This document shows positions 851-62,055 of a stretch of 64,000 nucleotides of DNA, in pieces. Each line of letters opens with the position of its first letter. Positions within the stretch are counted from its first letter, which is position 1. The position numbers and the translations under genes were made by a program. The notes under the pieces are model-generated. The model had not been told where the DNA came from and did not search any database. It saw only the letters and a program-made list of their open reading frames with translations. The DNA is from Eledone cirrhosa (lineage: Eukaryota). The stretch lies in contig OZ024744.1 of the NCBI GenBank assembly GCA_964016885.1, positions 131,130,001 to 131,194,000 on the forward strand, given 5' to 3'.

Positions 851-1050
851 AACCCCAACTTAACTTAACCCCATTTTCACTCAAACCCAACTTAACTCAA
901 CCCCAACTTAACTTAACCCCAGCTTCACTCAACCCCAACTTAACTTAACCCCAACTTCACTCAACCCCAACTTAACTCAACCCCAACTTAACTTAACCCC
1001 AACTTGACTTAACCCCAACTTAACTTAACCCCAACTTAACTTAACCCCAA
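851..1050 (-). repeat. Inverted satellite cassette 1 (200 bp, subtype A1)
   Basis: Switch to AACCCCAACTTAACTT at GGGGTT|AACCCC; markers CCCATTTTCACTCAAACCC and CCCAGCTTCACTC; exit CCCCAA|AGTCGGGG. Confidence 0.97.
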
Positions 1051-2348
1051 AGTCGGGGTTAAGTTAAGTTGGGGGTAAGTTAAGTTGGGATTAAGTTGGG
1101 GTTAAGTTAAGTTAGGGTTAAGTTAAGTTGGGGTTAAGTTAAGTTGGGGTTAAGTTGGGGTTAAATTAAGTTGGGGCTAAGTTAATTTGTGGTTAAGTTA
1201 AGTTGGGGTTAAGTTAAGTTGGGGTTAAGTTAAGTTGCGTTTAAGTTGGGGTTAAGTTAAGTTAGGGTTAAGTTAAGTTGGGGTTAAGTTAAGTTGGGGT
1301 TAATTTAAATTGGGGTTAAGTTAACTTTGTGGTTAAGTTAAGTTGGGGTTAAGTTAAGTTGGGGTTAAGTTGGGGTTAATTTAAGTTGGGGCTAAGTTAA
1401 TTTGTGGTTAAGTTAAGTTGGGGTTAAGTTAAGTTGGGGTTAAGTTAAGTTGGGGTTGAGTTAAGTTGGGGTTGAGATAATTTGGGGTTAATTTAAGTTG
1501 GGGTTAAGTTAAGTTGGGTTTTAGTTAAGTTGGGGTTAAATTAAGTTGGGGTTAAATTAAGTTGGGGTTAAGTTAAGTTGGGGGTAAGTTAAGTTGGGGG
1601 CAAGTTAAGTTGGGGCTAAGTTAAGTTGGGGTTAAATTAAGTTGGGGTTACGTTAAGTTGGTGTTAAGTTAAGTTGGGGTTAATTTAAGTTGGGGTTAAT
1701 TAAGTTGGGGTTAAGTTAAGTTGGGGTTAAGTTAAGTTGGGGTTTATTTAAGTTGGGGTTAAGTTAAGTTGGGGTTAATTAAGTTGGGGTTAATTTAAGT
1801 TGGGGTTAAGTTAAGTTGGGGTTAATTTAAGTTGGGGTTGAGTTAAGTTGGGGTTAAGTTAAGTTGGGGTTATATTAAGTTGGGGTTAGGTTAAGTTGGG
1901 GTTAAGTTAAGTTGGGGTTAAGTTAAGTTGGGGTTTATTTAAGTTGGGGTTAAGTTAAGTTGGGGTTAATTTAAGTTGGGGTTGAGTTAAGTTGGTGTTG
2001 AGTTAAGTTGCGGTTATGTTAAGTTGGGGTTAAGTTAAGTTGGGGTTAAGTTAAGTTGGGGCTGAGTTAAGTTGGGGCTGAGTTAAGTTGGGGTTAAGTT
2101 AAGTTGGGGTTAAGTTAAGTCGGGGTTAAGTTAAGTTGGGGTTAAGTTAAGTTGGGGTTAAGTTAAGTTGGGGTTAAGTTAAGTTGGGGTTAAGTTAAGT
2201 TGGGTTTAAGTTAAGTTGGGGTTAAGTTAAGTTGGGGTCAAGTTAAGTTGGGGTTAAGTTAAGTTGGTTAGTTAAGTTGAGTTTAAGTTAAGTTGGGGTT
2301 AATTTATGTTGGGGTTAAGTTAAGTTGGGGTTAAGTTAAGTTGGGGTT

Positions 2349-2548
2349 AACCCCAACTTAACTTAACCCCAACTTCACTCAACGCCAACGTAACTCAACC
2401 CCAACTTAACTTAACCCCAACTTCACTCAACCCCAACTTAACTTAACCCCAACTTCACTCAACCCCAACTTAAGTCAACCCCAACTTAACTTAACCCCAA
2501 CTTGACTTAACCCCAACTTAACTTAGCACGAACTTAACTTAAGCCCAA
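2349..2548 (-). repeat. Inverted satellite cassette 2 (200 bp, subtype B)
   Basis: Markers AACGTAACTC, AAGTCAACC, TAGCAC, exit AAGCCCAA|AGTCGGGG; private variants AACGCC and GCACGA. Confidence 0.97.
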
Positions 2549-3753
2549 AGTCGGGGTTAAGTTAAGTTGGCGTTAAGTTAAGTTAGGCTTAACTTAAGTT
2601 GGGGTTCAGTTAAGTTGGGGGTAAGTTAAGTTGGGGGTAAGTTAAGTTGGGGTTAAGTTAAGTTGCGTTTAAGTTGGGGTTAAGTTAAGTTAGGGTTAAG
2701 TTAAGTTGGGATTAAGTTAAGTTGGGGATAATTTAAGTTGGGGTTAAGTTGGGGTTAATTTAACTTGGGGCTAAGTTAATTTGTGGTTAAGTTAAGTTGG
2801 GGTTAAGTTAAGTTGGGGTTAAGTTAAGTTGGGGTTGAGTTAAGTTGGGGTTGAGTTAATTTGGGGTTAATTTAAGTTGGGGTTAAGTTAAGTTGGGTTT
2901 AAGTTAAGTTGGGGTTAAGTTAAGTTGGGGTTAAATTAAGTTGGGGTTAAGTTAAGTTGGGGGTAAGTTAAGTTGGGGGCAAGTTAAGTTGGGGCTAAGT
3001 TAAGTTGGGGTTAAATTAAGTTGGGGTTACGTTAAGTTGGTGTTAAGTTAAGTTGGGGTTAATTTAAGTTGGGGTTAATTAAGTTGGGGTTAAGTTAAGT
3101 TGGGGTTAAGTTAAGTTGGGGTTTATTTAAGTTGGGGTTAAGTTAAGTTGGGGTTCAGTTAAGTTGGGGTTCAGTTAAGTTGGGGTTAAGTTAAGTTGGG
3201 GTTAAGATGGGGTTAAATTAAGTTGGGGTTAAGTTAAGTTGGGGTTAAGTTAAGTTGGGGTTAAGTTAAGTTGGGGTTAAGTTAAGTCGGGGTTAAGTTA
3301 AGTCGGGGTTAAGTTAAGTTAGGGTTCAGTTAAGTTGGGGTTAAGTTAAGTTGGGGTTGAGTTAAGTTGGGGTTGAGTTAAATTGGGGTTGAGTTAAGTT
3401 GGGGTTGAGTTAAGTTGGTGTTGAGTTAAGTTGCGGTTATGTTAAGTTGGGGTAAGTTAAGTTGGGGTTAAGTTAAGTTGGGGCTAAGTTAAGTTGGGGT
3501 TAAGTTAAGTTGGGGTTAATTAAGTTGGGGTTAAGTTAAGTTGGGGTTAAGTTTAGTTGGGTTTAAGTTAAGTTGGGGTTAAGTTAAGTTGGGGTCAAGT
3601 TAAGTTGGGGTTAAGTTAAGTTGGTTAGTTAAGTTGAGTTTAAGTTAAGTTGGGGTTAATTTATGTTGGGGTTAAGTTAAGTTGGGGTTAAGTTAAGTTG
3701 GGGTTAAGTTAAGTTGGGGTTAAGTTAAGTTGGGGTTAAGTTAAGTTGGGGTT

Positions 3754-3953
3754 AACCCCAACTTAACTTAACCCCAACGTAACTCAACCCCAACGTAACT
3801 CAACCCCAACTTAACTTAACCCCAACTTCACTCAACCCCAACTTAACTTAACTCCAACTTCACTCAATCCCAACTTAAGTCAACCCCAACTTAACTTAAC
3901 CCCAACTTGACTTAACCCCAACTTAACTTAGCACCAACTTAACTTAAGCCCAA
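3754..3953 (-). repeat. Inverted satellite cassette 3 (200 bp, subtype B)
   Basis: Same junctions; two AACGTAACTC monomers, private ACTCC and AATCCC. Confidence 0.97.
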
Positions 3954-5782
3954 AGTCGGGGTTAAGTTAAGTTGGCGTTAAGTTAAGTTAGGCTTAACTT
4001 AAGTTGGGGTTCAGTTAAGTTGGGGGTAAGTTAAGTTGGGGGTAAGTTAAGTTGTGGTTAAGTTAAGTTGCGTTTAAGTTGGGGTTAAGTTAAGTTAGGG
4101 TTAAGTTAAGTTGGGGTTAAGTTAAGTTGGGGTTAATTTAAATTGGGGTTAAGTTAACTTTGTGGTTAAGTTAAGTTGGGGTTAAGTTAAGTTGGGGTTA
4201 AGTTGGGGTTAATTTAAGTTGGGGCTAAGTTAATTTGTGGTTAAGTTAAGTTGGGGTTAAGTTAAGTTGGGGTTAAGTTAAGTTGGGGTTGAGTTAAGTT
4301 GGGGTTGAGTTAATTTGGGGTTAATTTAAGTTGGGGTTAAGTTAAGTTGGGTTTAAGTTAAGTTGGGGTTAAATTAAGTTGGGGTTAAATTAAGTTGGGG
4401 TTAAGTTAAGTTGGGGGTAAGTTAAGTTGGGGGCAAGTTAAGTTGGGGCTAAGTTAAGTTGGGGTTAAATTAAGTTGGGGTTACGTTAAGTTGGTGTTAA
4501 GTTAAGTTGGGGTTAATTTAAGTTGGGGTTAATTAAGTTGGGGTTAAGTTAAGTTGGGGTTAAGTTAAGTTGGGGTTTATTTAAGTTGGGGTTAAGTTAA
4601 GTTGGGGTTCAGTTAAGTTGGGGTTCAGTTAAGTTGGGGTTAAGTTAAGTTGGGGTTAAGATGGGGTTAAATTAAGTTGGGGTTAAGTTAAGTTGGGGTT
4701 AAGTTAAGTTGGGGTTAAGTTAAGTTGGGGTTAAGTTAAGTCGGGGTTAAGTTAAGTCGGGGTTAAGTTAAGTTAGGGTTCAGTTAAGTTGGGGTTGAGT
4801 TCAGTTGGGGTTGAGTTAAGTTGGGGTTAAGTTAAGTTGGGGATAAGTTAAGTTGGGGTTAAGTTAAGTTGGGGTTTATTTAAGTTGGGGTTAATTTAAG
4901 TTGCAGTTAAGTTAAGTTGAGGTTAAGTTAAGGTGCGGTTAAGTTAAGTTGGGGTTAAGTTAAGTTGGGGCTAAGTTAAGTTGGGGCTAAGTTAAGTTGG
5001 GGCTAAGTTAAGTTGGGGTTAGGTTAAGTCGGGGTTAAGTTAAGTCGGGGTTAAGTTAAGTTGGCGTTAAGTTAAGTTGGGGTTAATTTAAGTTGGGGTT
5101 AAGTTAAGTTGGGGTTAATTTAAGTTGGGGTTAAGTTAAGTTGCGGGTAATTTAAGTTGGGGTTAAGTTAAGTTGGGGTTAAGTTAAGTTGGGGTTATGT
5201 TAAGTTGGTTAGTTAAGTTGAGTTTAAGTTAAGTTGGGGTTAATTTATGTTGGGGTTAAGTTAAGTTGGGGTTAAGTTAAGTTGGGGTTAATTTAAGTTG
5301 GGGTTAAGTTAAGTTGCGGGTAATTTAAGTTGGGGTTAAGTTAAGTTGGGGTTAAGTTAAGTTGGGGTTATGTTAAGTTGGGGTTAAGTTAAGTTGGGGT
5401 TAAGTTAAGTTGGGGCTAAGTTAAGTTGGGGCTGAGTTAAGTTGGGGTTAAGTTAAGTTGGGGTTAAGTTAAGTTGGGGATAAGTTAAGTTGGGGTTAAG
5501 TTAAGTTGGGGTTTATTTAAGTTGGGGTTAATTTAAGTTGGGGTTCATTTAAGTTGGGGTTAAGTTAAGTTGGGGTTAAGTTAAGTTGGGGTTAAGTTAA
5601 GTTGGGGTTAATTTAAGTTGGGTTTAAGTTAAGTTGGGGTTAAGTTAAGTTGGGGTCAAGTTAAGTTGGGGTTAAGTTAAGTTGGTTAGTTAATTTGAGT
5701 TTAAGTTAAGTTGGGGTTAATTTTTGTTGGGGTTAAGTTAAGTTGGGGTTAAGTTAAGTTGGGGTTAAGTTAAGTTGGGGTT

Positions 5783-5982
5783 AACCCCAACTTAACTTAA
5801 CCCCAACTTCACTCAACCCCAACGTAACTCAACCCCAACTTAACTTAACCCCAACTTCACTCAACCCCAACTTAACTTAACCCCAACTTCACTCAACCCC
5901 AACTTAAGTCAACCCCAACTTAACTTAACCCCAACTTGACTTAACCCCAACTTAACTTAGCACCAACTTAACTTAAGCCCAA
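5783..5982 (-). repeat. Inverted satellite cassette 4 (200 bp, subtype B)
   Basis: Same junctions and B markers. Confidence 0.97.
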
Positions 5983-8747
5983 AGTCGGGGTTAAGTTAAG
6001 TTGGCGTTAAGTTAAGTTAGGCTTAACTTAAGTTGGGGTTCAGTTAAGTTGGGGGTAAGTTAAGTTGGGGGTAAGTTAAGTTGGGGTTAAGTTAAGTTGC
6101 GTTTAAGTTGGGGTTAAGTTAAGTTAGGGTTAAGTTAAGTTGGGGTTAATTTAAATTGGGGTTAAGTTAACTTTGTGGTTAAGTTAAGTTGGGGTTAAGT
6201 TAAGTTGGGGTTAAGTTGGGGTTAATTTAAGTTGGGGCTAAGTTAATTTGTGGTTAAGTTAAGTTGGGGTTAAGTTAAGTTGGGGTTAAGTTAAGTTGGG
6301 GTTGAGTTAAGTTGGGGTTGAGTTAATTAGGGGTTAAATTAAGTTGGGGTTAAGTTAAGTTGGGGGTAAGTTAAGTTGGGGCTAAGTTAAGTTGGGGTTA
6401 AATTAAGTTGGGGTTACGTTAAGTTGGTGTTAAGTTAAGTTGGGGTTAATTTAAGTTGGGGTTAATTAAGTTGGGGTTAAGTTAAGTTGGGGTTAAGTTA
6501 AGTTGGGGTTTATTTAAGTTGGGGTTAAGTTAAGTTGGGGTTCAGTTAAGTTGGGGTTCAGTTAAGTTGGGGTTAATTTAAGTTGGGGTTAAGATGGGGT
6601 TAAATTAAGTTGGGGTTAAGTTAAGTTTGGGTTAAGTTAAGTTGGGGTTAAGTTAAGTTGGGGTTAAGTTAAGTCGGGGTTAAGTTAAGTCGGGGTTAAG
6701 TTAAGTTAGGGTTCAGTTAAGTTGGGGTTAAGTTAAGTTGGGGTTGAGTTAAGTTGGGGTTGAGTTAAATTGGGGTTGAGTTAAGTTGGGGTTGAGTTAA
6801 GTTGGTGTTGACTTAAGTTGGGGTTAAGTTAAGTTGGGGTTAAGTTAAGTTGCAGTTAAGTTAAGTTGAGGTTAAGTTAAGGTGCGGTTAAGTTAAGTTG
6901 GGGTTAAGTTAAGTTGGGGCTAAGTTAAGTTGGGGCTAATTTAAGTTGGGGCTAAGTTACGTTGGGGTTAGGTTAAGTTGGGGTTAAGTTAAGTCGGGGT
7001 TAAGTTAAGTTGGCGTTAAGTTAAGTTGGGGTTAATTTAAGTTGGGGTTAAGTTAAGTTGGGGTTAAGTTAAGTTGGGGTTAAGTTAAGTTGGGGTTATG
7101 TTAAGTTGGGGTTAAGTTAAGTTGGGGTTAAGTTAAGTTGGGGCTAAGTTAAGTTGGGGCTGAGTTAAGTTGGGGTTAAGTTAAGTTGGGGTTAAGTTAA
7201 GTTTGGGATAAGTTAAGTTGGGGTTAAGTTAAGTTGGGGTTTATTTAAGTTGGGGTTAATTTAAGTTGGGGTTCAGTTAAGTTGGGGTTCAGTTAAGTTG
7301 GGGTTAAGTTAAGTTGGGGTTTATTTAAGTTGGGGTTAATTTAAGTCGGGGTTAAGTTAAGTCGGGGTTCAGTTAATATAGGGTTAAGTTAAGTTGGGGT
7401 TAAGTTAAATTGGGGTTGATTTAAGTTGGGGTTGAGTTAAGTTGGTGTTCAGTTAAGTTGGGGTTAAGTTAAGTTGGGGTTGATTTAAGTTGGGGTTGAG
7501 TTAAGTTGGTGTTCAGTTAAGTTGGGGTTAAGTTAAGTTGGGGTTAATTTAAGTTGCAGTTAAGTTAAGTTGAGGTTAAGTTAAGGTGGGGTTAAGTTAA
7601 GTTGGGGTTAGTTTAAGTTGGGGCTAAGCTAAGTTGGGGCTAAGTTAAGTTGGGGCTAAGTTAAGTTGGGGTTAAGTTAAGTTGGGGTATATTAAGTTGG
7701 GGTTAAGTTAAGTTGGGGTTAAGTTAAGTTGGGGTTAAGTTAAGTTGGGGCTGAGTTAAGTTGGGGCTGAGTTAAGTTGGGGCTGAGTTAAGTTGGGGTT
7801 AAGTTAAGTTGGGGTATATTAAGTTGGGGTTAAGTTAAGTTGGGGTTAAGTTAAGTTGGGGTTAAGTTAAGTTGGGGCTGAGTTAAGTTGGGGCTTAGTT
7901 AAGGTGGGGCTGAGTTAAGTTGGGGTTAAGATAAGTTGGGGTTGAGTTAAGTTGGGGTTAAGTTAAGTTGGGGTTAAGTTAAGTTGGGGTTAAGTTGGGG
8001 TTAAGTTAAGTTAGGTTTAAGTTAAGTTGGGTTTAAGTTAAGTTGGGGTTAAGTTAAGTTGGGGTTAAGTTAAGTTGGGTTTAAGTTAAGTTGGGGTTAA
8101 TTTAAGTTGGGGATAAGTTAAGTCGGGGTTAAGTTAAGTTGGTGTTAAGTTAAGTTGGGGTTAAGTTAAGTTGGGGTTAAGTTAAGTTGGGGTTAAGTTA
8201 AGTTGGGGTTAAGTTAAGTTGAGGTTAAGTTAAGTTGGGGTTAAATTAAGTTGGGGTTAAGTTAAGTTGGGGTTAAGTTAAGTTGGGGTTAAGTTAAGTT
8301 GGGGATATGTTAAGTTGGGGATGAGTTAAATTGGGGTTAAGTTAAGTTGGGTTTAAGTTAAGTTGGGGTTAAGTTAAGTTGGGGTTAAGTTAAGTTGGGG
8401 TTAAGTTAAGTTGGTTAGTTAAGTTGAGTTTAAGTTAAGTTGGGGTTAATTTAAATCGGGGTTAAGTTAAGTTAGGGTTAAGTTAAGTTGGGGTTGAGTT
8501 AAGTTGGGGTTGAGTTAAATTGGGGTTGAGTTAAGTTGGGGTTGAGTTAAGTTGGTGTTGAGTTAAGTTGGGGTTAAGTTAAGTTGGGGTTAAGTTAAGT
8601 TGTGGTTAAGTTAAGTTGAGGTTAAGTTAAGTTGGGGTTAAGTTAAGTTGGGGTTAATTTAAGTTGGGGCTAAGTTAAGTTGGGGCTAAGTTAAGTTGGG
8701 GTTAAGTTAAGTTGGGGTCAACTTAAGTTGGGGTTAAGTTAAGTTGG

Positions 8748-10523
8748 CGTTAAGTTAAGTTGGGGTTAAGTTAAGTTGGGGTTAAGTTAAGTTGGTGTTA
8801 AGTTAAGTTGGGGCTGAGTTAAGTTGGGGCTGAGTTAAGTTGGGGCTGAGTTAAGTTGGGGTTCAGTCAAGTTGGGGTTAAGTTAAGTTGGGGTTATTTT
8901 AAGTTGGGGTTTAGTTAAGTTGGGGTTCATTTAAGTTGGGGTTAAGTTAAGTTTGGGTTAAGTTGGGGTTAAATTAATTTGGGGTTAAATGAAGTTGGGG
9001 TTAAGTTAAGTTGGGGTTAAGTTAAGTTGGGGTTAATTTAAGTTGGGGTTAAGTTAAGTTGCGGGTAATTTAAGTTGGGGTTAAGTTAAGTTGGGGTTAA
9101 GTTAAGTTGGGGTTAAGTTAAGTTTGGGTTAAGTTAAGTTGGGGTTAAGTTAATTTGGGGTTAAGTTGGGGTTAAGTTAAGTTGGGGTTTATTTAAGTTG
9201 GGGTTAAGTTAAGTTGGGGTTCAGTTAAGTTGGGGTTCAGTTAAGTTGGGGTTAAGTTAAGCTGGGGTTAAGATGGGGTTAAATTAAGTTGGGGTTAAGT
9301 TAAGTTGGTTAGTTAAGTTGAGGTTAAGTTAAGTTGGGCTTAAGTTAAGTTGGGGTTAATTTAAGTTGGGGTTAAGTTAAGTTGGGGTTAAGTTAAGTTG
9401 GGGTTAAGTCAAGTTGGGGTTAAGTTAAGTTGGGGTTGAGTTAAGTTGGGGTTGAGTGAAGTTGGGGTTAAGTTAAGTTGGGGTTAAGTTAAGTTGGGGT
9501 TAAGTTAAGTTGGGGTCAAGTTAAGTTAGGGTTAAGTTAAGTTGGGGTTAAGTTAAGTTGGCGTTAAGTTAATTTGTGGTTAAGTTAAGTTGGGGTTAAC
9601 CCCAACTTAACTTAACCCCATTTTCACTCAAACCCAACTTAACTCAACCCCAACTTAACTTAACCCCAGCTTCACTCAACCCCAACTTAACTTAACCCCA
9701 ACTTCACTCAACCCCAACTTAACTCAACCCCAACTTAACTTAACCCCAACTTGACTTAACCCCAACTTAACTTAACCCCAACTTAACTTAACCCCAAAGT
9801 CGGGGTTAAGTTAAGTTGGGGGTAAGTTAAGTTGGGATTAAGTTGGGGTTAAGTTAAGTTAGGGTTAAGTTAAGTTGGGGTTAAGTTAAGTTGGGGTTAA
9901 GTTGGGGTTAAATTAAGTTGGGGCTAAGTTAATTTGTGGTTAAGTTAAGTTGGGGTTAAGTTAAGTTGGGGTTAAGTTAAGTTGCGTTTAAGTTGGGGTT
10001 AAGTTAAGTTAGGGTTAAGTTAAGTTGGGGTTAAGTTAAGTTGGGGTTAATTTAAATTGGGGTTAAGTTAACTTTGTGGTTAAGTTAAGTTGGGGTTAAG
10101 TTAAGTTGGGGTTAAGTTGGGGTTAATTTAAGTTGGGGCTAAGTTAATTTGTGGTTAAGTTAAGTTGGGGTTAAGTTAAGTTGGGGTTAAGTTAAGTTGG
10201 GGTTGAGTTAAGTTGGGGTTGAGATAATTTGGGGTTAATTTAAGTTGGGGTTAAGTTAAGTTGGGTTTTAGTTAAGTTGGGGTTAAATTAAGTTGGGGTT
10301 AAATTAAGTTGGGGTTAAGTTAAGTTGGGGGTAAGTTAAGTTGGGGGCAAGTTAAGTTGGGGCTAAGTTAAGTTGGGGTTAAATTAAGTTGGGGTTACGT
10401 TAAGTTGGTGTTAAGTTAAGTTGGGGTTAATTTAAGTTGGGGTTAATTAAGTTGGGGTTAAGTTAAGTTGGGGTTAAGTTAAGTTGGGGTTTATTTAAGT
10501 TGGGGTTAAGTTAAGTTGGGGTT
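8748..10523 (+). repeat. Dispersed direct copy of 1-1776 (offset 8747)
   Basis: The window start CGTTAAG... recurs at 8748; cassettes 1/5 and markers GAGATAATTT and GGGTTTTAG are shared; divergence at 1777 versus 10524. Confidence 0.88.
9598..9797 (-). repeat. Inverted satellite cassette 5 (200 bp, subtype A1)
   Basis: Same markers as cassette 1, offset 8747. Confidence 0.97.
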
Positions 10524-11139
10524 CAGTTAAGTTGGGGTTCAGTTAAGTTGGGGTTAAGTTAAGTTGGGGTTAAGATGGGGTTAAATTAAGTTGGGGTTAA
10601 GTTAAGTTGGGGTTAAGTTAAGTTGGGGTTAAGTTAAGTCGGGGTTAAGTTAAGTCGGGGTTAAGTTAAGTTAGGGTTGAGTTAAGTTGGGGTTAAGTTA
10701 AGTTGGGGTTGAGTTAAGTTGGGGTTGAGTTAAATTGGGGTTGAGTTAAGTTGGGGTTGAGTTAAGTTGGTGTTGAGTTAAGTTGCGGTTATGTTAAGTT
10801 GGGGTTAAGTTAAGTTGGGGTTAAGTTAAGTTGGGGCTAAGTTAAGTTGGGGCTGAGTTAAGTTGGGGTTAAGTTAAGTTGGGGTTAAGTTAAGTCGGGG
10901 TTAAGTTAAGTTGGGGTTAAGTTAAGTTGGGGTTAAGTTAAGTTGGGGTTAAGTTAAGTTGGGGTTAAGTTAAGTTGGGTTTAAGTAAAGTTGGGGTTAA
11001 GTTAAGTTGGGGTCAAGTTAAGTTTGGGTTAAGTTAAGTTGGTTAGTTAAGTTGAGTTTAAGTTAAGTTGGGGTTAATTTATGTTGGGGTTAAGTTAAGT
11101 TGGGGTTAAGTTAAGTTGGGGTTAAGTTAAGTTGGGGTT

Positions 11140-11339
11140 AACCCCAACTTAACTTAACCCCAACTTCACTCAACCCCAACGTAACTCAACCCCAACTTAA
11201 CTTAACCCCAACTTCACTCAACCCCAACTTAACTTAACCCCAACTTCACTCAACCCCAACTTAAGTCAACCCCAACTTAACTTAACCCCAACTTGACTTA
11301 ACCCCAACTTAACTTAGCACCAACTTAACTTAAGCCCAA
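11140..11339 (-). repeat. Inverted satellite cassette 6 (200 bp, subtype B)
   Basis: Same junctions and B markers. Confidence 0.97.
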
Positions 11340-50392: not shown

Positions 50393-50592
50393 AACCCCAA
50401 CTTAACTTAACCCCAACTTCACTCAAACCCAACTTAACTCAACCCCAACTTAACTTAACCCCAGCTTCACTCAACCCCAACTTAACTTAACCCCAACTTC
50501 ACTCAACCCCAACTTAACTCAACCCCAACTTAACTTAACCCCAACTTGACTTAACCCCAACTTAACTTAACCCCAACTTAACTTAACCCAAA
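50393..50592 (-). repeat. Inverted satellite cassette 22 (200 bp, A2; copy of cassette 11)
   Basis: Offset 25759; shares CCCAAAAGTC exit. Confidence 0.97.
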
Positions 50593-51928: not shown

Positions 51929-52128
51929 AACCCCAACTTAACTTAACCCCAACTTCACTCAAACCCAACTTAACTCAACCCCAACTTAACTTAACCCCAG
52001 CTTCACTCAACCCCAACTTAACTTAACCCCAACTTCACTCAACCCCAACTTAACTCAACCCCAACTTAACTTAACCCCAACTTGACTTAACCCCAACTTA
52101 ACTTAACCCCAACTTAACTTAACCCCAA
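51929..52128 (-). repeat. Inverted satellite cassette 23 (200 bp, A2)
   Basis: A markers; offset 1536 from cassette 22. Confidence 0.97.
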
Positions 52129-53910
52129 AGTCGGGGTTAAGTTAAGTTGGGGGTAAGTTAAGTTGGGATTAAGTTAAGTTGCGGTTAAGTTGGGGTTAAG
52201 TTAAGTTGGGGTTAAGTTAAGTCGGGGTAATTTAAGTCGGGGTTAAGTTAAGTTAGGGTTAAGTTAAGTTGGGGTTAAGTTAAAGTTGGGGTTGAGTTAA
52301 GTTGCGGTTGAGTTAAATTGGGGTTGAGTTAAGTTGGGGTTGAGTGAAGTTGGTGTTGAGTTAAGTTGGGGTTAAGTTAAGTTGGGGTTAAGTTATGTTG
52401 CGGTTAAGTTAAGTTGAGGTTAAGTTAAGTTGGGGTTAACTTAAGTGTGGGTTAAGTTCAGTTGGGGTTAAGTTAAGTTGGGGTTGAGTTAAGTTGGGGT
52501 TGAGTTAAATTGGGGTTGAGTTAAGTTGGGGTTGAGTTAAGTTGGTGTTGAGTTAAGTTGGGGTTAAGTTAAGTTGGGGTTAAGTTAAGTTGCGGTTAAG
52601 TTAAGTTGAGGTTAAGTTAAGTTGGGGTTAACTTAAGTGTGGGTTAAGTTAAGTTGGGGTTAAGTTAAGTTGGGGTTAAGTTAAGTTGGTGTTAAGTTAA
52701 GTTGGGGCTGAGTTAAGTTGGGGCTGAGTTAAGTTGGGGCTGAGTTAAGTTGGGGTTCAGTTAAGTTGGGGTTGAGTTAAGTTGCGGTTAAGTTAAGTTG
52801 GGGTTAAGTTAAGTTGGGGTTATGTTAAGTTGGGGTTAAGGTAGGTTGGGGTTAAGTTAAGTTGGGGTTGAGTTAAGTTGGGGTTGAGTTAAATTGGGGT
52901 TGAGTTAAGTTGGGGTTGAGTTAAGTTGGTGTTGAGTTAAGTTGGGGTTAAGTTAAGTTGGGGTTAAGTTAAGTTGCGATTAAGTTAAGTTGAGGTTAAG
53001 TTAAGTTGGGGTTAACTTAAGTGTGGGTTAAGTTAAGTTAAGGTTAAGTTAAGTTGGGGTTAAGTTAAGTTGGGGTTAAGTTAAGTTGGGGTTAAGTTAA
53101 GTTGGTGTTAAGTTAAGTTGGGGCTGAGTTAAGTTGGGGCTGAGTTAAGTTGGGGCTGAGTTAAGTTGGGGTTCAGTTAAGTTGGGGTTGAGTTAAGTTG
53201 CGGTTAAGTTAAGTTGGGGTTAAGTTAAGTTGGGGTTATGTTAAGTTGGGGTTTAGTTAAGTTGGGGTTCATTTAAGTTGGGGTTAAGTTAAGTTTAGGT
53301 TAAGTTGGGGTTAAATTAATTTGGGGTTAAGTTAAGTTGGGGTTAAGTTAAGTTGGGGTTAATTTAAGTTGGGGTTAATTTAAGTTGGGGTTAAGTTAAG
53401 TTGCGGGTAATTTAAGTTGGGGTTAAGTTAAGTTGGGGTTAAGTTAAGTTGGGGTTAAGTTAAGTTGGGGTTAAGTTAAGTTAAGTTGGGGCTAATTTAA
53501 GTTGGGGCTGAGTTAAGTTGGGGTTAAGTTAAGTTGGGGTTAAGTTAATTTGGGGTTAAGTTGGGGTTAAGTTAAGTTGGGGTTTATTTAAGTTGGGGTT
53601 AAGTTAAGTTGGGGTTCAGTTAAGTTGGGGTTCAGTTAAGTTGGGGTTAAGTTAAGTTGGGGTTAAGATGGGGTTAAATTAAGTTGGGGTTAAGTTAAGT
53701 TGGGCTTAAGTTAAGTTGGGGTTAATTTAAGTTGGGGTTAAGTTAAGTTGGGGTTCAGTTAAGTTGGGGTTAAGTCAAGTTGGGGTTAAGTTGGGGTTAA
53801 ATTAAGTTGGGGTTAAGTTAAGTTGGGGTCAAGTTAAGTTAGGGTTAAGTTAAGTTGGGGTTAAGTTAAGTTGGGGTTAAGTTAATTTGTGGTTAAGTTA
53901 AGTTGGGGTT

Positions 53911-54110
53911 AACCCCAACTTAACTTAACCCCAACTTCACTCAAACCCAACTTAACTCAACCCCAACTTAACTTAACCCCAGCTTCACTCAACCCCAACT
54001 TAACTTAACCCCAACTTCACTCAACCCCAACTTAACTCCACCGCAACTTAACTTAACCCCAACTTGACTTAGCCCCAACTTAACTTAACCCCAACTTAAC
54101 TTAACCCCAA
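53911..54110 (-). repeat. Inverted satellite cassette 24 (200 bp, A2)
   Basis: A markers plus private CTCCACCGC and TAGCCCC; offset 1982 from cassette 23. Confidence 0.97.
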
Positions 54111-56828
54111 AGTCGGGGTTAAGTTAAGTTGGGGGTAAGTTAAGTTGGGATTAAGTTAAGTTGCGGTTAAGTTGGGGTTAAGTTAAGTTGGGGTTAAGTT
54201 AAGTCGGGGTAAGTTAAGTCGGGGTTAAGTTAAGTTAGGGTTAAGTTAAGTTGGGGTTAAGTTAAAGTTGGGGTTGAGTTAAGTTGCGGTTGAGTTAAAT
54301 TGGGGTTGAGTTAAGTTGGGGTTGAGTGAAGTTGGTGTTGAGTTAAGTTGGGGTTAAGTTAAGTTGGGGTTAAGTTATGTTGCGGTTAAGTTAAGTTGAG
54401 TTTAAGTTAAGTTGGGGTTAACTTAAGTGTGGGTTAAGTTCAGTTGGGGTTAAGTTAAGTTGGGGTTGAGTTAAGTTGGGGTTGAGTTAAATTGGGGTTG
54501 AGTTAAGTTGGGGTTGAGTTAAGTTGGTGTTGAATTAAGTTGGGGTTAGGTTAAGTTGGGGTTAAGTTAAGTTGCGGTTAAGTTAAGTTGAGGTTAAGTT
54601 AAGTTGGGGTTAACTTAAGTGTGGGTTAAGTTAAGTTGGGGTTAAGTTAAGTTGGGGTTAATTTAAGTTGGTGTTAAGTTAAGTTGGGGCTGAGTTAAGT
54701 TGGGGCTGAGTTAAGTTGGGGCTGAGTTAAGTTGGGGTTCAGTTAAGTTGGGGTTGAGTTAAGTTGCGGTTAAGTTAAGTTGGGGTTAAGTTAAGTTGGG
54801 GTTATGTTAAGTTGGGGTTAAGGTAGGTTGGGGTTAAGTTAAGTTGGGGTTGAGTTAAGTTGGGGTTGAGTTAAATTGGGGTTGAGTTAAGTTGGGGTTG
54901 AGTTAAGTTGGTGTTGAGTTAAGTTGGGGTTAAGTTAAGTTGGGGTTAAGTTAAGTTGCGATTAAGTTAAGTTGAGGTTAAGTTAAGTTGGGGTTAACTT
55001 AAGTGTGGGTTAAGTTAAGTTAAGGTTAAGTTAAGTTGGGGTTAAGTTAAGTTGGGGTTAAGTTAAGTTGGGGTTAAGTTAAGTTGGTGTTAAGTTAAGT
55101 TGGGGCTGAGTTAAGTTGGGGCTGAGTTAAGTTGGGGCTGAGTTAAGTTGGGGTTCAGTTAAGTTGGGGTTGAGTTAAGTTGCGGTTAAGTTAAGTTGGG
55201 GTTAAGTTAAGTTGGGGTTATGTTAAGTTGGGGTTTAGTTAAGTTGGGGTTCATTTAAGTTGGGGTTAAGTTAAGTTTAGGTTAAGTTGGGGTTAAATTA
55301 ATTTGGGGTTAAGTTAAGTTGGGGTTAAGTTAAGTTGGGGTTAATTTAAGTTGGGGTTAATTTAAGTTGGGGTTAAGTTAAGTTGCGGGTAATTTAAGTT
55401 GGGGTTAAGTTAAGTTGGGGTTAAGTTAAGTTGGGGTTAAGTTAAGTTGGGGTTAAGTTAAGTTTGGGTTAAGTTAAGTTGGGGCTAATTTAAGTTGGGG
55501 CTGAGTTAAGTTGGGGTTAAGTTAAGTTGGGGTTAAGTTAATTTGGGGTTAAGTTGGGGTTAAGTTAAGTTGCGGTTTATTTAAGTTGGGGTTAAGTTAA
55601 GTTGGGGTTCAGTTAAGTTGGGGTTCAGTTAAGTTGGGGTTAAGTTAAGTTGGGGTTAAGTTAAGTTGGTTAGTTAAGTTGAGGTTAAGTTAAGTTGGGG
55701 TTAAGTTAAGTTGGGGTTAAGTTAAGTTGGGGTTAATTTAAGTTGGGGCTAAGTTAAGTTGGGGCTAAGTTAAGTTGGAGCTAAGTTAAGTTGGGTTTAA
55801 GTTAAGGTGGGGTTAAGTTAAGTTGAGGTTAAGTTAAGTTGGGGTTAAGTTAAGTTGGTGTTAAGTTAAGTTGGGGCTGAGTTAAGTTGGGGCTGAGTTA
55901 AGTTGGGGCTGAGTTAAGTTGGGGTTGAGTTAAGTTGGGGTTGAGTTACGTTGCGGTTAAGTTAAGTTGGGGTTAAGTTAAGTTGGGGTTATGTTAAGTT
56001 GGGGTTAAGTTAAGTTGGGGTTGAGTTAAGTTGGGGTTGAGTTAAATTGGGGTTGAGTTAAGTTGGGGTTGAGTTAAGTTGGTGTTGAGTTAAGTTGGGA
56101 TTAAGTTAAGTTGGGGTTAAGTTAAGTTGCGGTTAAGTTAAGGTGAGGTTAAGTTAAGTTGGGGTTAACTTAAGTTGGGGTTAAGTTAAGTTGGGGTTAA
56201 GTTAAGTTGGGGTTAAGTTAAGTTGGTGTTAAGTTAAGTTGGGGCTGAGTTAAGTTGGGGCTGAGTTAAGTTGGGGCTGAGTTAAGTTGGGGTTCAGTTA
56301 AGTTGGGGTTGAGTTAAGTTGCGGTTAATTTAAGTTGGGGTTAAGTTAAGTTGGGGTTCATTTAAGTTGGGGTTAAGTTAAGTTTGGGTTAAGTTGGGGT
56401 TAAATTAATTTGGGGTTAAGTTAAGTTGGGGTTAAGTTAAGTTGGGGTTAAGTTAAGTTGGGGTTAATTTAAGTTGGGGTTAATTTAAGTTGCGGGTAAT
56501 TTAAGTTGGGGTTAAGTTAAGTTGGGGTTAAGTTAAGTTGGGGTTAAGTTAAGTTGGGGTTAAGTTAAGTTGGGTTTAAGTTAAGTTGGGGCTGAGTTAA
56601 GTTGGGGTTAATTTAAGTTGGGGTTAAGTTAAGTTGGGGTTAAGTTAAGTTGGGGTTTATTTAAGTTGGGGTTAAGTTAAGTTGGGGTTCAGTTAAGTTG
56701 GGGTTCAGTTAAGTTGGGGTTAAGTTAAGTTGGGGTTAAGATGGGGTTAAATTAAGTTGGGGTTAAGTTAAGTTGGGGTTAAGTTAAGTTGGGGTTAAGT
56801 TAAGTTGGGGTTAAGTTAAGTTGGGGTT

Positions 56829-56971
56829 AACCCCAACTTAACTTAACCGCAACTTCACTCAACCCCAACGTAACTCAGCCCCAACTTAACTTAACCCCAA
56901 CTTCACTCAACCCCAACTTCCAACTTGACTTAACCCCAACTTAACTTAGCCCCAACTTAACTTAAGCCCAA
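56829..56971 (-). repeat. Inverted satellite cassette 25 (143 bp, B with internal 57-bp deletion)
   Basis: B markers AACGTAACTC and AAGCCCAAAGTC; out-of-register join CCCCAACTTC/CAACTTGACT near 56920. Confidence 0.95.
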
Positions 56972-59900
56972 AGTCGGGGTTAAGTTAAGTTGGCGTTAAG
57001 TTAAGTTAGGCTTAACTTAAGTTGGGGTTCAGTTAAGTTGGGGGTAAGTTAAGTTGGGGGTAAGTTAAGTTGGGGTTAAGTTAAGTTGCGGTTAAGTTGG
57101 GGTTAAGTTAAGTTAGGGTTAAGTTAAGTTGGGGTTGAGTTAAGTTGGGGTTAATTAAGTGGTGGTTATGTTAAGTTGGGGTTAAGTTAAGTTGGGGTTA
57201 ATTTAAATTGGGGTTAAGTTAACTTTGTGGTTAAGTTAAGTTGGGGTTAAGTTAAGTTGGGGTAAAGTTGGGGTTGAGTTAAGTTGGGGTTGAGTGAAGT
57301 TGGGGTTAAGTTAAGTTGGGGTTAAGTTAAGTTGGGGTTAAGATAAGTCGGGGTTAAATTAAGTTGTGGTTGAGTTAAGTTGGGGTTAATTTAAGTTGGG
57401 GCTAAGTTAATTTGTGGTTAAGTTAAGTTGGGGTTAAGTTAAGTTGGGGTTAAGTTAAGTCGGGGTAAGTTAAGTCGGGGTTAAGTTAAGTTAGGGTTAA
57501 GTTAAGTTGGGGTTAAGTTAAGTTGGGGTTGAGTTAAGTTGGGGTTGAGTTAAATTGGGGTTGAGTTAAGTTGGTGTTGAGTTAAGTTGGTGTTGAGTTA
57601 AGTTGGGGTTAAGTTAAGTTGGGGTTAAGTTAAGTTGCGGTTAAGTTAAGTTGAGGTTAAGTTAAGTTGGGGTTAACTTAAGTGTGGGTTAAGTTAAGTT
57701 GGGGTTAAGTTAAGTTGGGGTTAAGTTAAGTTGGTGTTAAGTTAAATTGGGGTTGAGTTAAGTTGGGGCTGAGTTAAGTTGGGGCTGAGTTAAGTTGTGG
57801 TTCAGTTAAGTTGGGGTTGAGTTAAGTTGCGGTTAAGTTAAGTTGGGGTTAAGTTAAGTTGGGGTTATGTTAAGTTGGGGTTGAGGTAGGTTGGGGTTAA
57901 GTTAAGTTGGGGTTGAGTTAAGTTGGGGTTGAGTTAAATTGGGGTTGAGTTAAGTTGGGGTTGAGTTAAGTTGGTGTTGAGTTAAGTTGGGGTTAAGTTA
58001 AGTTGGGGTTAAGTTAAGTTGCGGTTAAGTTAAGTTGGGGTTAAGTTAAGTTGGGGTTAAGTTAAGTTGGGGTTAAGTTAAGTTGGGGTTAAGTTAAGTT
58101 GGTGTTAAGTTAAGTTGGGGCTGAGTTAAGTTGGGGCTGAGTTAAGTTGGGGCTGAGTTAAGTTGGGGTTCAGTTAAGTTGGGGTTAAGTTAAGTTGGGG
58201 TTATGTTAAGTTGGGGTTTAGTTAAGTTGGGGTTCATTTAAGTTGGGGTTAAGTTAAGTTTAGGTTAAGTTGGGGTTAAATTAATTTGGGGTTAAGTTAA
58301 GTTGGGGTTAAGTTAAGTTGGGGTTAATTTAAGTTGGGGTTAATTTAAGTTGGGGTTAAGTTAAGTTGCGGGTAATTTAAGTTGGGGTTAAGTTAAGTTG
58401 GGGTTAAGTTAAGTTGGGGTTAAGTTAAGTTGGGGTTAAGTTAAGTTTGGGTTAAGTTAAGTTGGGGCTAATTTAAGTTGGGGCTGAGTTAAGTTGGGGT
58501 TAAGTTAAGTTGGGGTTAAGTTAATTTGGGGTTAAGTTGGGGTTAAGTTAAGTTGGGGTTTATTTAAGTTGGGGTTAAGTTAAGTTGGGGTTCAGTTAAG
58601 TTGGGGTTCAGTTAAGTTGGGGTTAAGTTAAGTTGGGGTTAAGTTAAGTTGGTTAGTTAAGTTGAGGTTAAGTTAAGTTGGGGTTAAGTTAAGTTGGGGT
58701 TAAGTTAAGTTGGGGTTAATTTAAGTTAGGGTTAAGTTAAGTTGGGGTTCAGTTAAGTTGGGGTTAAGTCAAGTTGGGGTTAAGTTGGGGTTAAATTAAG
58801 TTGGGGCTAAGTTAAGTTGGGGCTAAGTTAAGTTGGGGCTAAGTTAAGTTGGGGTTCAGTTAAGTTGGGGTTAAGTTAAGTTTGGGTTAAGTTGGGGTTA
58901 AATTAAGTTGGGGTTAAGTTAAGTTGGGGTTTAGTTAAGTTGGGGTTAATTTAAGTTGGGGTTAATTTAAGTTGCGGTTAAGTTAAGTTGGGGTTAAGTT
59001 AAGTGGTGGTTATGTTAAGTTGGGGTTAAGTTAAGTTGGGGTTAATTTAAATTGGGGTTAAGTTAACTTTGTGGTTAAGTTAAGTTGGGGTTAAGTTAAG
59101 TTGGGGTTAAGTTAAGTTGGGGTTGCGTTAAGTCGGGGTTGAGTGAAGTTGGGGTTAAGTTAAGTTGGGGTTAATTTAAGTTGGGGTTAAGTTAAGTCGG
59201 GCTTAAGTTAAGTTGGGGTTAAGTTAATTTGGGGTTAAGTTAAGTTGGGGTTAAGTTAAGTTGGGGTTGAGTTAAGTTGGGGTTGAGTTAATTTAGGGTT
59301 AAGTTAAGTTGGGGTTAAGTTAAGTTGGGTTTAAGTTAAGTTGGGGTTAAATTAAGTTGGGGTTAAATTAAGTTGGGGTTAAGTTAAGTTGGGGGTAAGT
59401 TAAGTTGGGGGCAAGTTAAGTTGGGGTTAAGTTAAGTTGGGGTTAAATTAAGTTGGGGTTAAGTTTAGTTGGTGTTAAGTTAAGTTGGGGTTTATTTAAG
59501 TTGGGGTTAATTAAGTTGGGGCTGAGTTAAGTTGGGGCTGAATTAAGTTGGGGTTAAGTTAAGTTGGGGTTGAGTTAAGTTGGGGTTAAGTTAAGTTGGG
59601 GTTAAGTTAAGTTGGGGTTCAGTTAAGTTGGGGTTAAGTTGGGGTTAAATTAATTTGGGGTTAAGTTAAGTTGGGGTTTAGTTTAGTTGGGGTTAAATTA
59701 AGTTGGGGTTAATTTAAGTTGGGGTTAAGTTAAGTTGCGGGTAATTTAAGTTGGGGTTAAGTTAAGTTGGGGTTAAGTTAAGTTGGGGTTAAGTTAAGTT
59801 GGGGTTAAGTTAAGTTGGGGGTAAGTTAAGTTGGGGGTAAGTTAAGTTGGGGTTAAGTTAAGTTGGGGTTAAGTTAAGTTAGGGTTAAGTTAAGTTGGGG

Positions 59901-60186
59901 TTGAGTTAAGTTGGGGTTAAGTTAAGTTGGGGTTATGTTAAGTTGGGGTTAAGTTAAGTTGGTTCGTTAAGTTGAGTTTAAGTTAAGTGGGGTTAATTTA
60001 AGTTGGGGTTAAGTTAAGTTGGGGTTAAGTTAAGTTGGGGTTAAGTTAAGTTGGGGTTAAGTTAAGTTGGGGTTCAGTTAAGTTGGGGTTAAGTCAAGTT
60101 GGGGTTAAGTTAAGTTGGGGTTATGTTAAGTTGGGGTTAAGTTAAGTTGGGGTTAAGTTAATTTGTGGTTAAGTTAAGTTGTGGTT

Positions 60187-60578
60187 AACCCCAACTTCAC
60201 TCAACCCCACCTTAACTCAACCCCAACTTAACTTAAGCCCAACTTCACTCAACCCCAACTTAACTTAACCCCAACTTCACTCAACCCCAACTTAACTCAA
60301 CCCCAACTTAACTTAACCCCAACTTAACTTAACCCTAACTTAACTTAACCCCAACTTAACTTAACTTCGACTTAACTTAACCCCAACTTAACTTAACCCC
60401 AACTTAACTTAACCCCAACTTAACTTAACCACAAATTAACTTAACCCCAACTTAAATTAACCCCAACTTAAATTAACCCCAACTTAACTTAACCCCAACT
60501 TAACTTAACCCCAACTTAAATTAACCCCAACTTGACTTAACCCCAAATTAACTTAACCCCAACTTAACTTAACCCCAA
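60187..60578 (-). repeat. Inverted satellite cassette 26 (392 bp, long form)
   Basis: Entry GTGGTT|AACCCC, exit CCCCAA|ATTCGGGG; extra middle monomers with CCCTA, TTCGAC, ACCACAAA. Confidence 0.96.
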
Positions 60579-61567
60579 ATTCGGGGTTAAGTTAAGTTGG
60601 GGTTAAATTAAGTTAGGCTTAACTTAAGTTGGGGTTAAGTTAATTTGGGGTTAAGTTCGGGTTAAGTTAAGTTAGGGTTAAGTTAAGTTGGGGTTGAGTT
60701 AAGTTGGGGTTAAGTTAAGTTGGGGTTAAGTTAAGTTGGGGTCAAGTTAAGTTGGGGTTAAAATTAAGTTGGGGTTAAATCAAGTTGGGGTTAAGTTAAA
60801 GTGGGGTTAATTTAGTTGGGGTTAAGTTAAGTTGGGGCTAAGTTAAGTTGGGGCTAAGTTAAGTTGGGACTAAGTTAAGTTGGGGTTAAGTTAAGTTGGG
60901 GTTAAGTTAAGTTGGGGTTAATTTAAGTTGGGATTGAGTTAAGTTGGGGTTAAGTTAAGTTGGGGTTATATTAAGTTGAGGTTAAGTTAAGTTGGGGTTA
61001 AGTTAAGTTGGGGTTCAGTTAAGTTGCGGTTAAGTTAAGTTGGGGTTAAGTTAAGTTGGGGTTAAGTTAAGTTGGGGTTAAGTTAAGTTGGGGTCAAGTT
61101 AAGTTGGGGTTAAGTTAAGTTGGGGTTAAATTAAGTTGGGGTTAATTTAAGTTGGGGTTAATTTAAGCTGGGGTTAAGTTAAGTTGGGGATAATTTAAGT
61201 TGGGGATAAGTTAAGTTGGGGTTAAGTTAAGTTGGGTTTAAGTTAAGTTGGGGTTAAGTTAAGTTGCGGTTAAGTTAAGTTGGTTAGTTAAGTTGAGTTT
61301 AAGTTAAGTTGGGGTTAATTTAAGTTGGGGTTAAGTTACGTTGGGGTTAAGTTAAGTTGGGGCTAAGTTAAGTTGGGGTTCAGTTAAGTTGGGGTTAAAT
61401 CAATTTGGGGTTAAGTTGGGGTTAAATTAATTTGGGGTTAAGTTAAGTTGGGGTTAAGTTAAGTTGGGGTTAAGTTAAGTTGGGGTTAAGTTAAGTTGGG
61501 GTTAAGTTAAGTTGGAGTTAAGTTAAGTTTGGGTTGAGTTAAGTTGGGGTTGAGTTAAATTGGGGTT

Positions 61568-62055
61568 AACTCCAACTTAAGTTAACCCCAACTTAACTTA
61601 ACCCCAACTTCACTCAACCCCAACTTAACTTAACCCCAACTTCACTCAACCCCAACTTAACTCAACCCCAACCTAACTTAACCCCAACTTCACTCAACCC
61701 CAACTTATCTTAACCCCAACTTCACTCAACCCCAACTTAACTCAACCCCAACTTAACTTAACCCCAACTTAACTTAACCCTAACTTAACTTAACCCCGAC
61801 TTAACTTAACCTCGACTTAACTTAACCCCAACTTAATTTAACCCCAACTTAACTTAACCCCAACTTAACTTAACCACAAATTAACTTAACCCCAACTTCA
61901 ATTAACCCCAACTTAACTTAACCCCAACTTAACTTAACCCCAACTTAACTTAACCCCAACTTAACTCACACCCAACTTACCTTACCCCCAACTTAACTTA
62001 ACCCCAACTTGACTTAACCCCAACTTAACTTAACCCCAACTTAACTTAACCCCAA
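61568..62055 (-). repeat. Inverted satellite cassette 27 (488 bp, long form)
   Basis: Entry GGGGTT|AACTCC, exit CCCCAA|ATTCGGGG; middle monomers CCCTA, CCCCGAC, CCTCGAC, ACCACAAA. Confidence 0.96.

Follow-up and report, generated by a model that had tools for sequence, protein, structure and literature searches.

The window analysed here, 64,000 nucleotides of Eledone cirrhosa DNA, is part of an array of about 8.4 Mb of a 16-bp satellite, which extends from about 126.9 to 135.35 Mb on contig C28. Reverse-oriented blocks, referred to as cassettes, interrupt the forward monomers 27 times between positions 851 and 62053 (Table 1), as the initial annotation had reported. When cassette length is taken from TT/AACCCC (the slash marks the junction) to the last base ahead of the 6-nt exit loop, 22 of the 27 cassettes are 198 bp long, the 200 bp given earlier being the same blocks plus two A's, and the other five measure 182, 182, 141, 390, and 486 bp. 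The common internal marker order and the start-to-start spacing of 1381-3952 bp were likewise confirmed across the window, in which the 27 cassettes comprise 12 distinct sequences.

Table 1. Positions of the satellite, its duplications, and the reverse-oriented cassettes in the window.
Feature	Positions	Strand	Description
16-bp satellite	1..64000	+	commonest monomer GGGGTTAAGTTAAGTT; part of the C28 array
Tandem duplication, first copy	1..25167	+	exact, 25,759 bp; cassettes 1-11; starts 594 bp before the window
Tandem duplication, second copy	25165..50926	+	exact; cassettes 12-22
Entry junction (example)	845..856	.	GGGGTT/AACCCC; palindrome centre without spacer, at the TTAA of the monomer
Exit junction (example)	1045..1058	.	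CCCC-AAAGTC-GGGG; loop of 6 nt; lacks 14 bp relative to a clean TT/AA inversion junction
Post-exit forward monomers (example)	1055..1215	+	about 10 keep their order across Mb in most subfamilies
Cassette 1	851..1048	-	198 bp
Cassette 2	2349..2546	-	198 bp
Cassette 3	3754..3951	-	198 bp
Cassette 4	5783..5980	-	198 bp
Cassette 5	9598..9795	-	198 bp
Cassette 6	11140..11337	-	198 bp
Cassette 7	14086..14283	-	198 bp
Cassette 8	15628..15825	-	198 bp
Cassette 9	17521..17702	-	182 bp
Cassette 10	20682..20879	-	198 bp
Cassette 11	24634..24831	-	198 bp
Cassette 12	26610..26807	-	exact copy of cassette 1
Cassette 13	28108..28305	-	copy of cassette 2
Cassette 14	29513..29710	-	copy of cassette 3
Cassette 15	31542..31739	-	copy of cassette 4
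Cassette 16	35357..35554	-	copy of cassette 5
Cassette 17	36899..37096	-	copy of cassette 6
Cassette 18	39845..40042	-	copy of cassette 7
Cassette 19	41387..41584	-	copy of cassette 8
Cassette 20	43280..43461	-	182 bp, copy of cassette 9
Cassette 21	46441..46638	-	copy of cassette 10
Cassette 22	50393..50590	-	copy of cassette 11
Cassette 23	51929..52126	-	198 bp
Cassette 24	53911..54108	-	198 bp
Cassette 25	56829..56969	-	141 bp, internal deletion
Cassette 26	60187..60576	-	390 bp, long subfamily, exit loop AAATTC
Cassette 27	61568..62053	-	486 bp, long subfamily, entry GGGGTTAACTCC

Junctions and duplications

The entry junction that the cassettes had been said to share is exactly GGGGTTAACCCC in the first 25 of the 27 cassettes, and the final two deviate and read GTGGTTAACCCC and GGGGTTAACTCC. 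The shared exit pattern also holds at 25 of 27 exits, and the remaining two are CCCAAAAGTCGGGG. In 1.08 Mb of satellite-rich DNA, the orientation switches amount to 260 entries and 268 exits, and all 528 lie within two mismatches of the window's junctions, while 35 of 256 possible joins of plain monomers match the entry and 9 of 256 match the exit. The sharing of junctions is far beyond chance. As in Tribolium, the junction types are few and strongly conserved among copies, and both junctions consist of truncated monomers only, without foreign sequence. Of the 260 entries, 217 match the spacer-less form exactly. A set of 166 cassettes, which leaves out six exits without a detected entry, comprises 79 distinct sequences; perfect palindrome arms are mostly 20-27 bp at the entry and 3 bp in 81 of the 166 exits, and 115 of the 166 cassettes have a phase shift of +2.

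The two copies of the 25,759-bp tandem duplication are identical across 25,762 bp, with zero mismatches, and the next longest exact repeat is 4,353 bp (25 commonest offsets, 280 kb). Since cassettes 1-11 and 12-22 are copies in one duplication, only 16 cassettes are independent, 12 of them 198 bp long. The duplication supports recent ancestry as a source of the local uniformity, one of the possibilities raised in the initial annotation. Spacings recur within duplicated blocks, at offsets of 4,488, 11,710, 25,759, and 66,644 bp, and ordered sets of variant monomers are duplicated as blocks, as in a variable-length higher-order repeat. The description of the forward monomers as heavily shuffled fails for about 10 monomers past the exit, which keep their order across several Mb.

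Distribution along the array

At least 862 exit junctions were found in the array by a junction search of the assembly. The first 100 matches, which are those listed and reach over contigs C1-C28, all fall on C28, and contigs C1-C27 are without a junction match among them. Cassettes were absent from three of three satellite samples of the sister array on contig C3 and, within the same array, from all eleven 10-kb samples between 127.0 and 130.24 Mb (about 3.2 Mb); in the cassette-bearing span, 10 of 43 samples contain none. Match counts suggest that long arrays of the 16-bp satellite occur almost only on C28 and C3, which makes a shared centromeric repeat improbable. Three sequencing runs of one sample, with 0.58-0.66 of the searched words, may be those from which the assembly was made; RNA runs were absent from the sequencing-run matches listed. 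Four motifs of the satellite gave no match in literature text, and a search for octopus with satellite terms returned nothing relevant.

The regularity of the window is local. A conserved cassette length was not borne out array-wide, where cassettes range from 102 to 486 bp, differ mostly in monomer steps, and have modes that vary by domain, the common marker order spanning forms of 125-486 bp. None of these blocks approaches a kb-scale, near-symmetric inverted subarray. The proposed ceiling of about 4 kb on the gaps is exceeded elsewhere by gaps of up to 8.1, 13.5, and 33.5 kb, and the coefficient of variation (CV) of spacing in three contiguous stretches is 0.43, 0.63, and 1.25, the forward spacers having a mean of about 2 kb. 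Within the 280 kb surrounding the window, cassettes are more evenly spaced than all 76 overlapping forward 20-mer markers, and the maximum gap is unusually low (max/mean 1.97), which still speaks for the initial annotation.

Origin and spread of the cassettes

The cassettes are one family with a single junction pair, which likely arose by one micro-inversion at the TTAA palindrome of the monomer and probably spread passively via tandem duplications. Descent from one inversion, amplified inside a variable-length higher-order repeat, had been proposed before and is supported by this junction pair and by the marker order common to the copies. If both breaks of the inversion fell at TT/AA, the result would be exactly the observed entry and, at the exit, an A/T-rich perfect palindrome, from which 14 central bases would then have been lost with a phase shift of +2 bp; alternatively, direct end-joining at 1 bp of microhomology would leave the same letters. 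Such junctions would have no homologue among forward monomers, and the inverted block would mispair only with itself or another cassette; therefore unequal exchange would copy or delete the block whole, and its length would change more slowly than the flanks. The un-inverted ancestral allele was not found in 25 cassette-free loci, three of which carry the post-exit marker without cassette-like monomers before it. A mirror (fold-back) origin was looked for but not seen, with 128 of 1142 (11%) and 96 of 1126 (9%) flank variants mirrored vs about 6% by chance. An old mirror of the flanks could have been erased by later shuffling.

The comparison of rates inside and outside cassettes that had been proposed in the initial annotation revealed no lower substitution inside them, relative to either flanks or controls. 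Substitutions per kb were 4.7 inside vs 3.7 outside in entry-to-entry units, and 3.5 vs 5.9 in the cassette-centred alignment, a ratio that falls inside the spread of 11 forward-marker controls; these counts skip aligned blocks shorter than 24 bp or more than 5% mismatched. The approximate values for variant sharing, as a simple tokeniser mis-splits some short monomers, are 0.19-0.22 in cassettes, which does not exceed the 0.24 of the post-exit monomers or the 0.08-0.47 around 39 forward markers. Sequence constraint relative to the flanks, of the kind known from the CENP-B box, is thus not seen in the cassette, and indels are lower. A deficit of indels did emerge, a point in favour of the initial annotation, and it is about threefold: 10 were observed inside cassettes vs 17.7-22.4 expected from geometry alone (P 0.003-0.036), and the ratio of 0.30-0.32 is below all 11 controls (0.39-1.4), which derive from 12 control motifs, one having too few sites. 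In these comparisons, identical units were merged and tree edges were retained only up to a k-mer distance of 0.6, which left 99 of 104 for entry-to-entry units.

A neutral simulation of the spacing, also suggested earlier, reproduced the CV and the modal length, and it rarely reached the low maximum gap. With 2-monomer pairing, the median CV was 0.41 and the modal-length share 0.58, compared with 0.43 and 0.53 observed, and the indel deficit is approximately accounted for when about 32 bp must pair in the same orientation. Only 0-12% of neutral runs had a max/mean gap of 1.97 or less, in a model that starts from a uniform array and favours evenness. When the pairing requirement was removed, no more than 0-19% of runs attained the modal-length share, and the fit therefore rests on a tuned parameter.

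As a side effect, a cassette would provide inverted homology to the bulk monomers and could seed large inversions. A reversed domain of 0.56 Mb ends two monomers into a cassette; therefore cassettes likely act as inverted homology for large inversions, in this one case. The left end of the domain is a 200-N gap, and the reciprocal breakpoint was not found there. A tiny inverted block would in this likely case have given rise to an inversion of half a megabase, which would be one concrete way for large strand switches to enter unidirectional arrays. A giant palindrome centred at 133.355 Mb was rejected, the right side (5 of 5 samples, 133.4-133.6 Mb) being without the cassettes of the mirror side. 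Degraded sequence adjoins an N gap at 132.79 Mb.

It is distinctly unlikely that the cassettes are a functional landmark, in which selection keeps a hairpin or cruciform arm of about 200 bp, or a swap of the G-rich strand, at kb intervals to mark a chromatin, pairing, or centromere sub-domain of the array. The indel deficit, the even spacing near the window, and the many exact spacer-less entries agree with such a role, which the Tribolium authors have put forward as putative for conserved inversion sites (PMC13081366, PMC12581902). A cassette with its upstream flank is also predicted to fold into a stem of about 200 bp (-218 kcal/mol for 600 nt), but any inverted block in a satellite folds likewise. 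Along the array, however, cassettes differ in length, in spacing, and in whether they occur at all, substitutions are not reduced, contigs C1-C27 lack a junction match among those listed, and the match counts speak against a shared centromeric repeat. The fold z-score merely restates the presence of an inverted repeat.

A self-promoting fragile site, whose palindromic junctions would block replication forks or be cleaved, with repair then beginning close to cassettes, favouring duplication of the segments that bear them, and driving their spread with no host benefit, also seems unlikely. Every entry has a spacer-less palindrome, the large inversion breaks inside a cassette, the cassette domain contains very young duplications, and palindrome centres are reported as prone to breakage in human PATRRs (PMC3197554). 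In contrast, the perfect arms are short, the entry centre is G/C-rich, and indels inside cassettes are fewer, not more; moreover, the flanks are not mirrored in the cassettes, and therefore fold-back does not appear to be ongoing. The same lack of mirroring is unlike fold-back chimeras, and it is highly improbable that such chimeras, or false expansion during assembly, made the cassettes, since the exits, at least 862 of them, belong to subfamilies that cluster along the array, share substitutions and deletions in a nested pattern, and include many distinct sequences. The length of the zero-mismatch duplication relative to the next longest exact repeat and the degraded sequence beside the N gap would fit an artefact, and the single exact 25,759-bp duplication may be false.

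A more speculative and rather doubtful extension of the single micro-inversion is that it turned about 4.8 Mb of unidirectional satellite into hairpin-punctuated, inversion-prone DNA, where cassettes are seeds of breakage and recombination that promote their own duplication, flip Mb-scale segments, and lend this sub-array a distinct chromatin state. If so, the neighbouring 3.2 Mb of cassette-free array with the same monomer would be a built-in control for the idea that satellite function is marked by dyad structure rather than by sequence. Cassette-rich and cassette-free halves in one array allow a simple chromatin test.

Comparison with known systems

Microinversions at flanking inverted repeats, attributed to template switching or MMBIR (PMC8755829, PMC5453318), are likewise short inversions between short inverted repeats, TTAA in this case. 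As described there they are single-copy and 17-33 nt long, whereas the cassettes reach 0.1-0.5 kb and exist in hundreds of copies. Inverted subunits also occur in complex satellite monomers, such as those of the 1061-bp satellite of T. brevicornis, TmSat2 of T. madens, and the 385-bp satellite of Trichogramma (cited in PMC13081366, PMC12581902), where an inversion was likewise fixed in the repeating unit and amplified along with it. Their unit length is fixed according to these sources, whereas the unit of the present array ranges from 0.4 to >30 kb and has been rearranged by nested duplications. In human, HSat3B5 on chromosome 9 and beta-satellite arrays are inversion-rich, and a 1.7-Mb inversion lies in the chromosome 1 alpha-satellite HOR array (bioRxiv 10.1101/2021.07.12.452052). 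The many strand switches in simple-sequence satellites and the Mb-scale inversions within arrays resemble the present case; however, the available text of that study describes no short fixed-junction block and no large inversion ending in one.

Inversion junctions that are both conserved and amplified are already known from Tribolium satellites. Conserved inversion sites and macro-dyad symmetries were reported for TmSat1 and TmSat2 of Tribolium madens (PMC13081366) and for TfSat01 and TfSat03 of T. freemani (PMC12581902), and such symmetries are, according to PMC13081366, documented so far only in Tribolium. In both systems, orientation switches occur at few junction types, repeated near-identically (in thousands of copies in Tribolium) and without foreign sequence, and the framed blocks, some of which the Tribolium authors name cassettes, vary in monomer number; the hairpin function is a putative proposal of these authors. 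Tribolium arms are described as kb to tens of kb long and roughly symmetric, whereas the inverted block here is 0.1-0.5 kb, strongly asymmetric, and about 9% of the DNA. The reported Tribolium satellites, with several junction types and monomers of 110-700 bp, occupy putative (peri)centromeres of several or all chromosomes, but here one junction pair in a 16-bp simple satellite is found in one array only among the matches listed, and the same junctions were not seen on several non-homologous chromosomes, either in those matches or in the three C3 samples. Satellite inversion junctions, when conserved, had been taken as a sign of function. With passive spread as the probable explanation, this array indicates that hundreds of near-identical junctions can come from one event and duplication without substitution constraint, and it may therefore serve as a neutral yardstick for functional claims on satellite inversion junctions.

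Cassette family and junctions

The whole window consists of the 16-bp satellite, and the 27 reverse-oriented blocks of monomers (cassettes) counted in it agree with the initial annotation, as do the order of their markers and their spacing of 1381-3952 bp. The equal length claimed for 22 of 27 cassettes (200 bp) is also recovered, as 198 bp by the boundaries used here, and the other five measure 182, 182, 141, 390, and 486 bp. The junctions described earlier, the head-to-head entry (GGGGTT/AACCCC) and the tail-to-tail exit (CCCC, 6-nt loop, GGGG), hold generally, except that two entries and two exits are variant. Since window -594..25167 recurs at +25,759 without any mismatch along 25,762 bp, 11 of the cassettes are exact copies; 16 are independent, including 12 of 198 bp. 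Either this duplication happened extremely recently or the assembly has duplicated the segment falsely.

In a survey of 103 sequences (1.08 Mb), all 260 head-to-head and all 268 tail-to-tail switches lie within two mismatches of the window junctions, as would only 35/256 and 9/256 possible joins, respectively. Searched with a degenerate form of the exit, the assembly gives 788 + 74 matches; every one of the first 100 listed falls on C28, the contig of the window. Among 166 cassettes, 79 are distinct, and these share one common order when coded as monomer variants. A middle block is present in long cassettes and missing from the 198-bp and 173-bp forms; since two separate subfamilies have it in common, the ancestral cassette was probably long.

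TTAA is part of the monomer, and an inversion broken at TT/AA on both sides would produce the entry exactly and a perfect A/T-centred palindrome at the exit, which, after loss of 14 central bases and with a common T-to-C variant, would become the observed exit. The +2 phase shift in 115/166 cassettes fits this loss. According to PMC3197554, human palindromic AT-rich repeats undergo central deletions, and the fragile ones among them are AT-rich at the centre; the G/C-rich entry would have stayed intact for that reason. End-joining at 1 bp of microhomology would leave the same letters at the exit and is an alternative candidate for this step. Cassettes as mirror images of their flanks were rejected, the flanks not being mirrored.

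Length, spacing and neutral expectation

A fixed cassette length is not upheld along the array, as the modal length differs by domain (see table). Nor is there a gap ceiling near 4 kb: it is exceeded by 4/123 gaps across the 280 kb surrounding the window (124 cassettes, spacing CV 0.43), and the maximum is 8,060 bp in a second stretch (CV 0.63; 48 rows, including two spurious 7-bp calls) and 33,535 bp in a third (CV 1.25). Cassettes appeared in 0/11 samples at 127.0-130.24 Mb and were missing from 10/43 samples inside the cassette-bearing span; entry and exit searches gave no match between 124.69 and 130.247 Mb, among the matches listed.

Compared with their nearest paralogues, entry-to-entry units carry 4.7 substitutions per kb inside cassettes and 3.7 outside, and cassette-centred units 3.5 and 5.9, the centred ratio falling within the range of 11 forward-marker controls; reduced substitution is not seen. 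Indels were 0.46 per kb inside against 1.46 outside, a ratio lower than in 11/11 controls. Since geometry alone predicts 17.7-22.4 indels inside cassettes and 10 were observed, a twofold residual is left. Local spacing was evener than that of 76/76 overlapping forward markers, but the neutral simulations, too, spaced the cassette more evenly than a point marker of equal age in 83-100% of cases.

When halted at the cassette divergence seen here, 3.8%, a neutral model of duplication and deletion matched the CV, but just 0-19% of its runs attained the modal-length share. With two-monomer same-orientation pairing required on each side, 40 runs gave a CV of 0.41 and a modal share of 0.58, the observed values being 0.43 and 0.53. 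A max/mean gap as low as the local 1.97 (3.6 and 5.1 in the other two stretches) remained uncommon, at 0-12% of neutral runs, with or without the pairing. As a toy with a tuned parameter, the model makes neutrality plausible rather than proven.

Array setting and the reversed domain

The array spans about 126.9 to 135.35 Mb of the 136.5-Mb C28, as judged from samples, in an assembly of 3.0 Gb; the window occupies C28:131,130,001-131,194,000 within it. The monomer also forms a second long array near the middle of the 379-Mb contig C3, where 0/3 samples had cassettes, and part of a composite unit of about 0.5 kb, likewise mid-contig, on C2, with about 14 copies alternating with about 250 bp of unrelated sequence. 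Relatives of the composite with a short 16-mer tract lie on C28, and the monomer may have been spread by way of the composite. By scaling sample counts to the genome total, little room is estimated to be left for other long arrays.

Features along the satellite arrays (C28, contig of the window in assembly G000; C2 and C3, other contigs; L numbers, sequence samples along them)
Feature	Coordinates	Samples
Exact 25,759-bp tandem duplication	window -594..50926 (G000:C28:131,129,406-131,180,926)	
Modal length 173 and 214	130.25-130.36 Mb	
Modal length 173	130.52-130.63 Mb	
Modal length 198	near window	
Modal length about 420	131.4-131.8 Mb	
Modal length 230-343	132.0-132.7 Mb	
A/T-rich blocks	C28:132.2-132.8 Mb	L018, L019, L029, L061, L062, L081
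Reversed domain	C28, ~132.795 to 133.355 Mb	L081 (left end)
Its right end	C28:133,355,37x	L070:5375
Reversed island	C28:124.60-124.69 Mb	L084-L087
Three other satellites	C28:120, 124, 126 Mb	L021, L022, L023
Interstitial tract	C28:126.5 Mb	L080:7600-8700
Relatives of C2 composite	C28, 124.69 and 126.0 Mb	L087, L023
Second 16-mer array	C3:184.75-185.2+ Mb	L039, L040, L099
Composite satellite	C2:209.2-209.75 Mb	L037, L038

Ahead of the array come three more satellites, all unrelated, which makes the distal 16 Mb or so of C28 largely tandem repeat. Roughly 0.4 Mb separates a degenerate TTAGGG-type tract from the edge of the array, and the monomer itself resembles a telomere-like G/T repeat. G4 tracts at 12-nt spacing on one strand of the forward monomers in the window would fit the motif rule for long-loop G-quadruplexes; within cassettes, the G-rich strand switches sides. 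A SINE in the vicinity may be octopod-like. The array is broken by A/T-rich blocks, 0.7-3 kb long, that carry repeats of their own of about 28 bp; several copies are fused to a cassette's exit half with nothing in between, the entry being replaced. A reversed island of cassette-bearing satellite (about 90 kb) ends at an N gap on one side, and on the other a truncated cassette adjoins another G/T-rich satellite, a related one. The island is perhaps a misplaced contig, perhaps the true edge of the array.

At the right end of a reversed domain of about 0.56 Mb, an exit junction leads into the first two monomers of a cassette and from there into ordinary forward monomers, as would be expected had a cassette undergone exchange with bulk repeats. 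Since cassettes make up about 2% of the domain by our arithmetic, chance placement of the breakpoint in one is unlikely. A chimeric join is possible, and on the left the domain meets an N gap, after which the sequence is degraded. In this single case, a cassette probably seeded the large inversion.

Comparison with known satellites

The cassette pattern is real and tidy, but the cassette is most likely a passenger; the array is of value for its built-in cassette-free control and its large-inversion breakpoint. No description of the 16-bp satellite was found in the literature searched. In Tribolium satellites, inversion sites are conserved and amplified and cassettes vary, with function proposed only (PMC13081366, PMC12581902), arrays of mixed orientation are described in Chionographis (PMC10264360) and in the human HSat3 and beta satellites (10.1101/2021.07.12.452052), and microinversions flanked by inverted repeats are known (PMC8755829). 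Compared with these accounts, the E. cirrhosa cassette differs in being short, asymmetric, probably of single origin, and, in the samples and listed matches, confined to one array.
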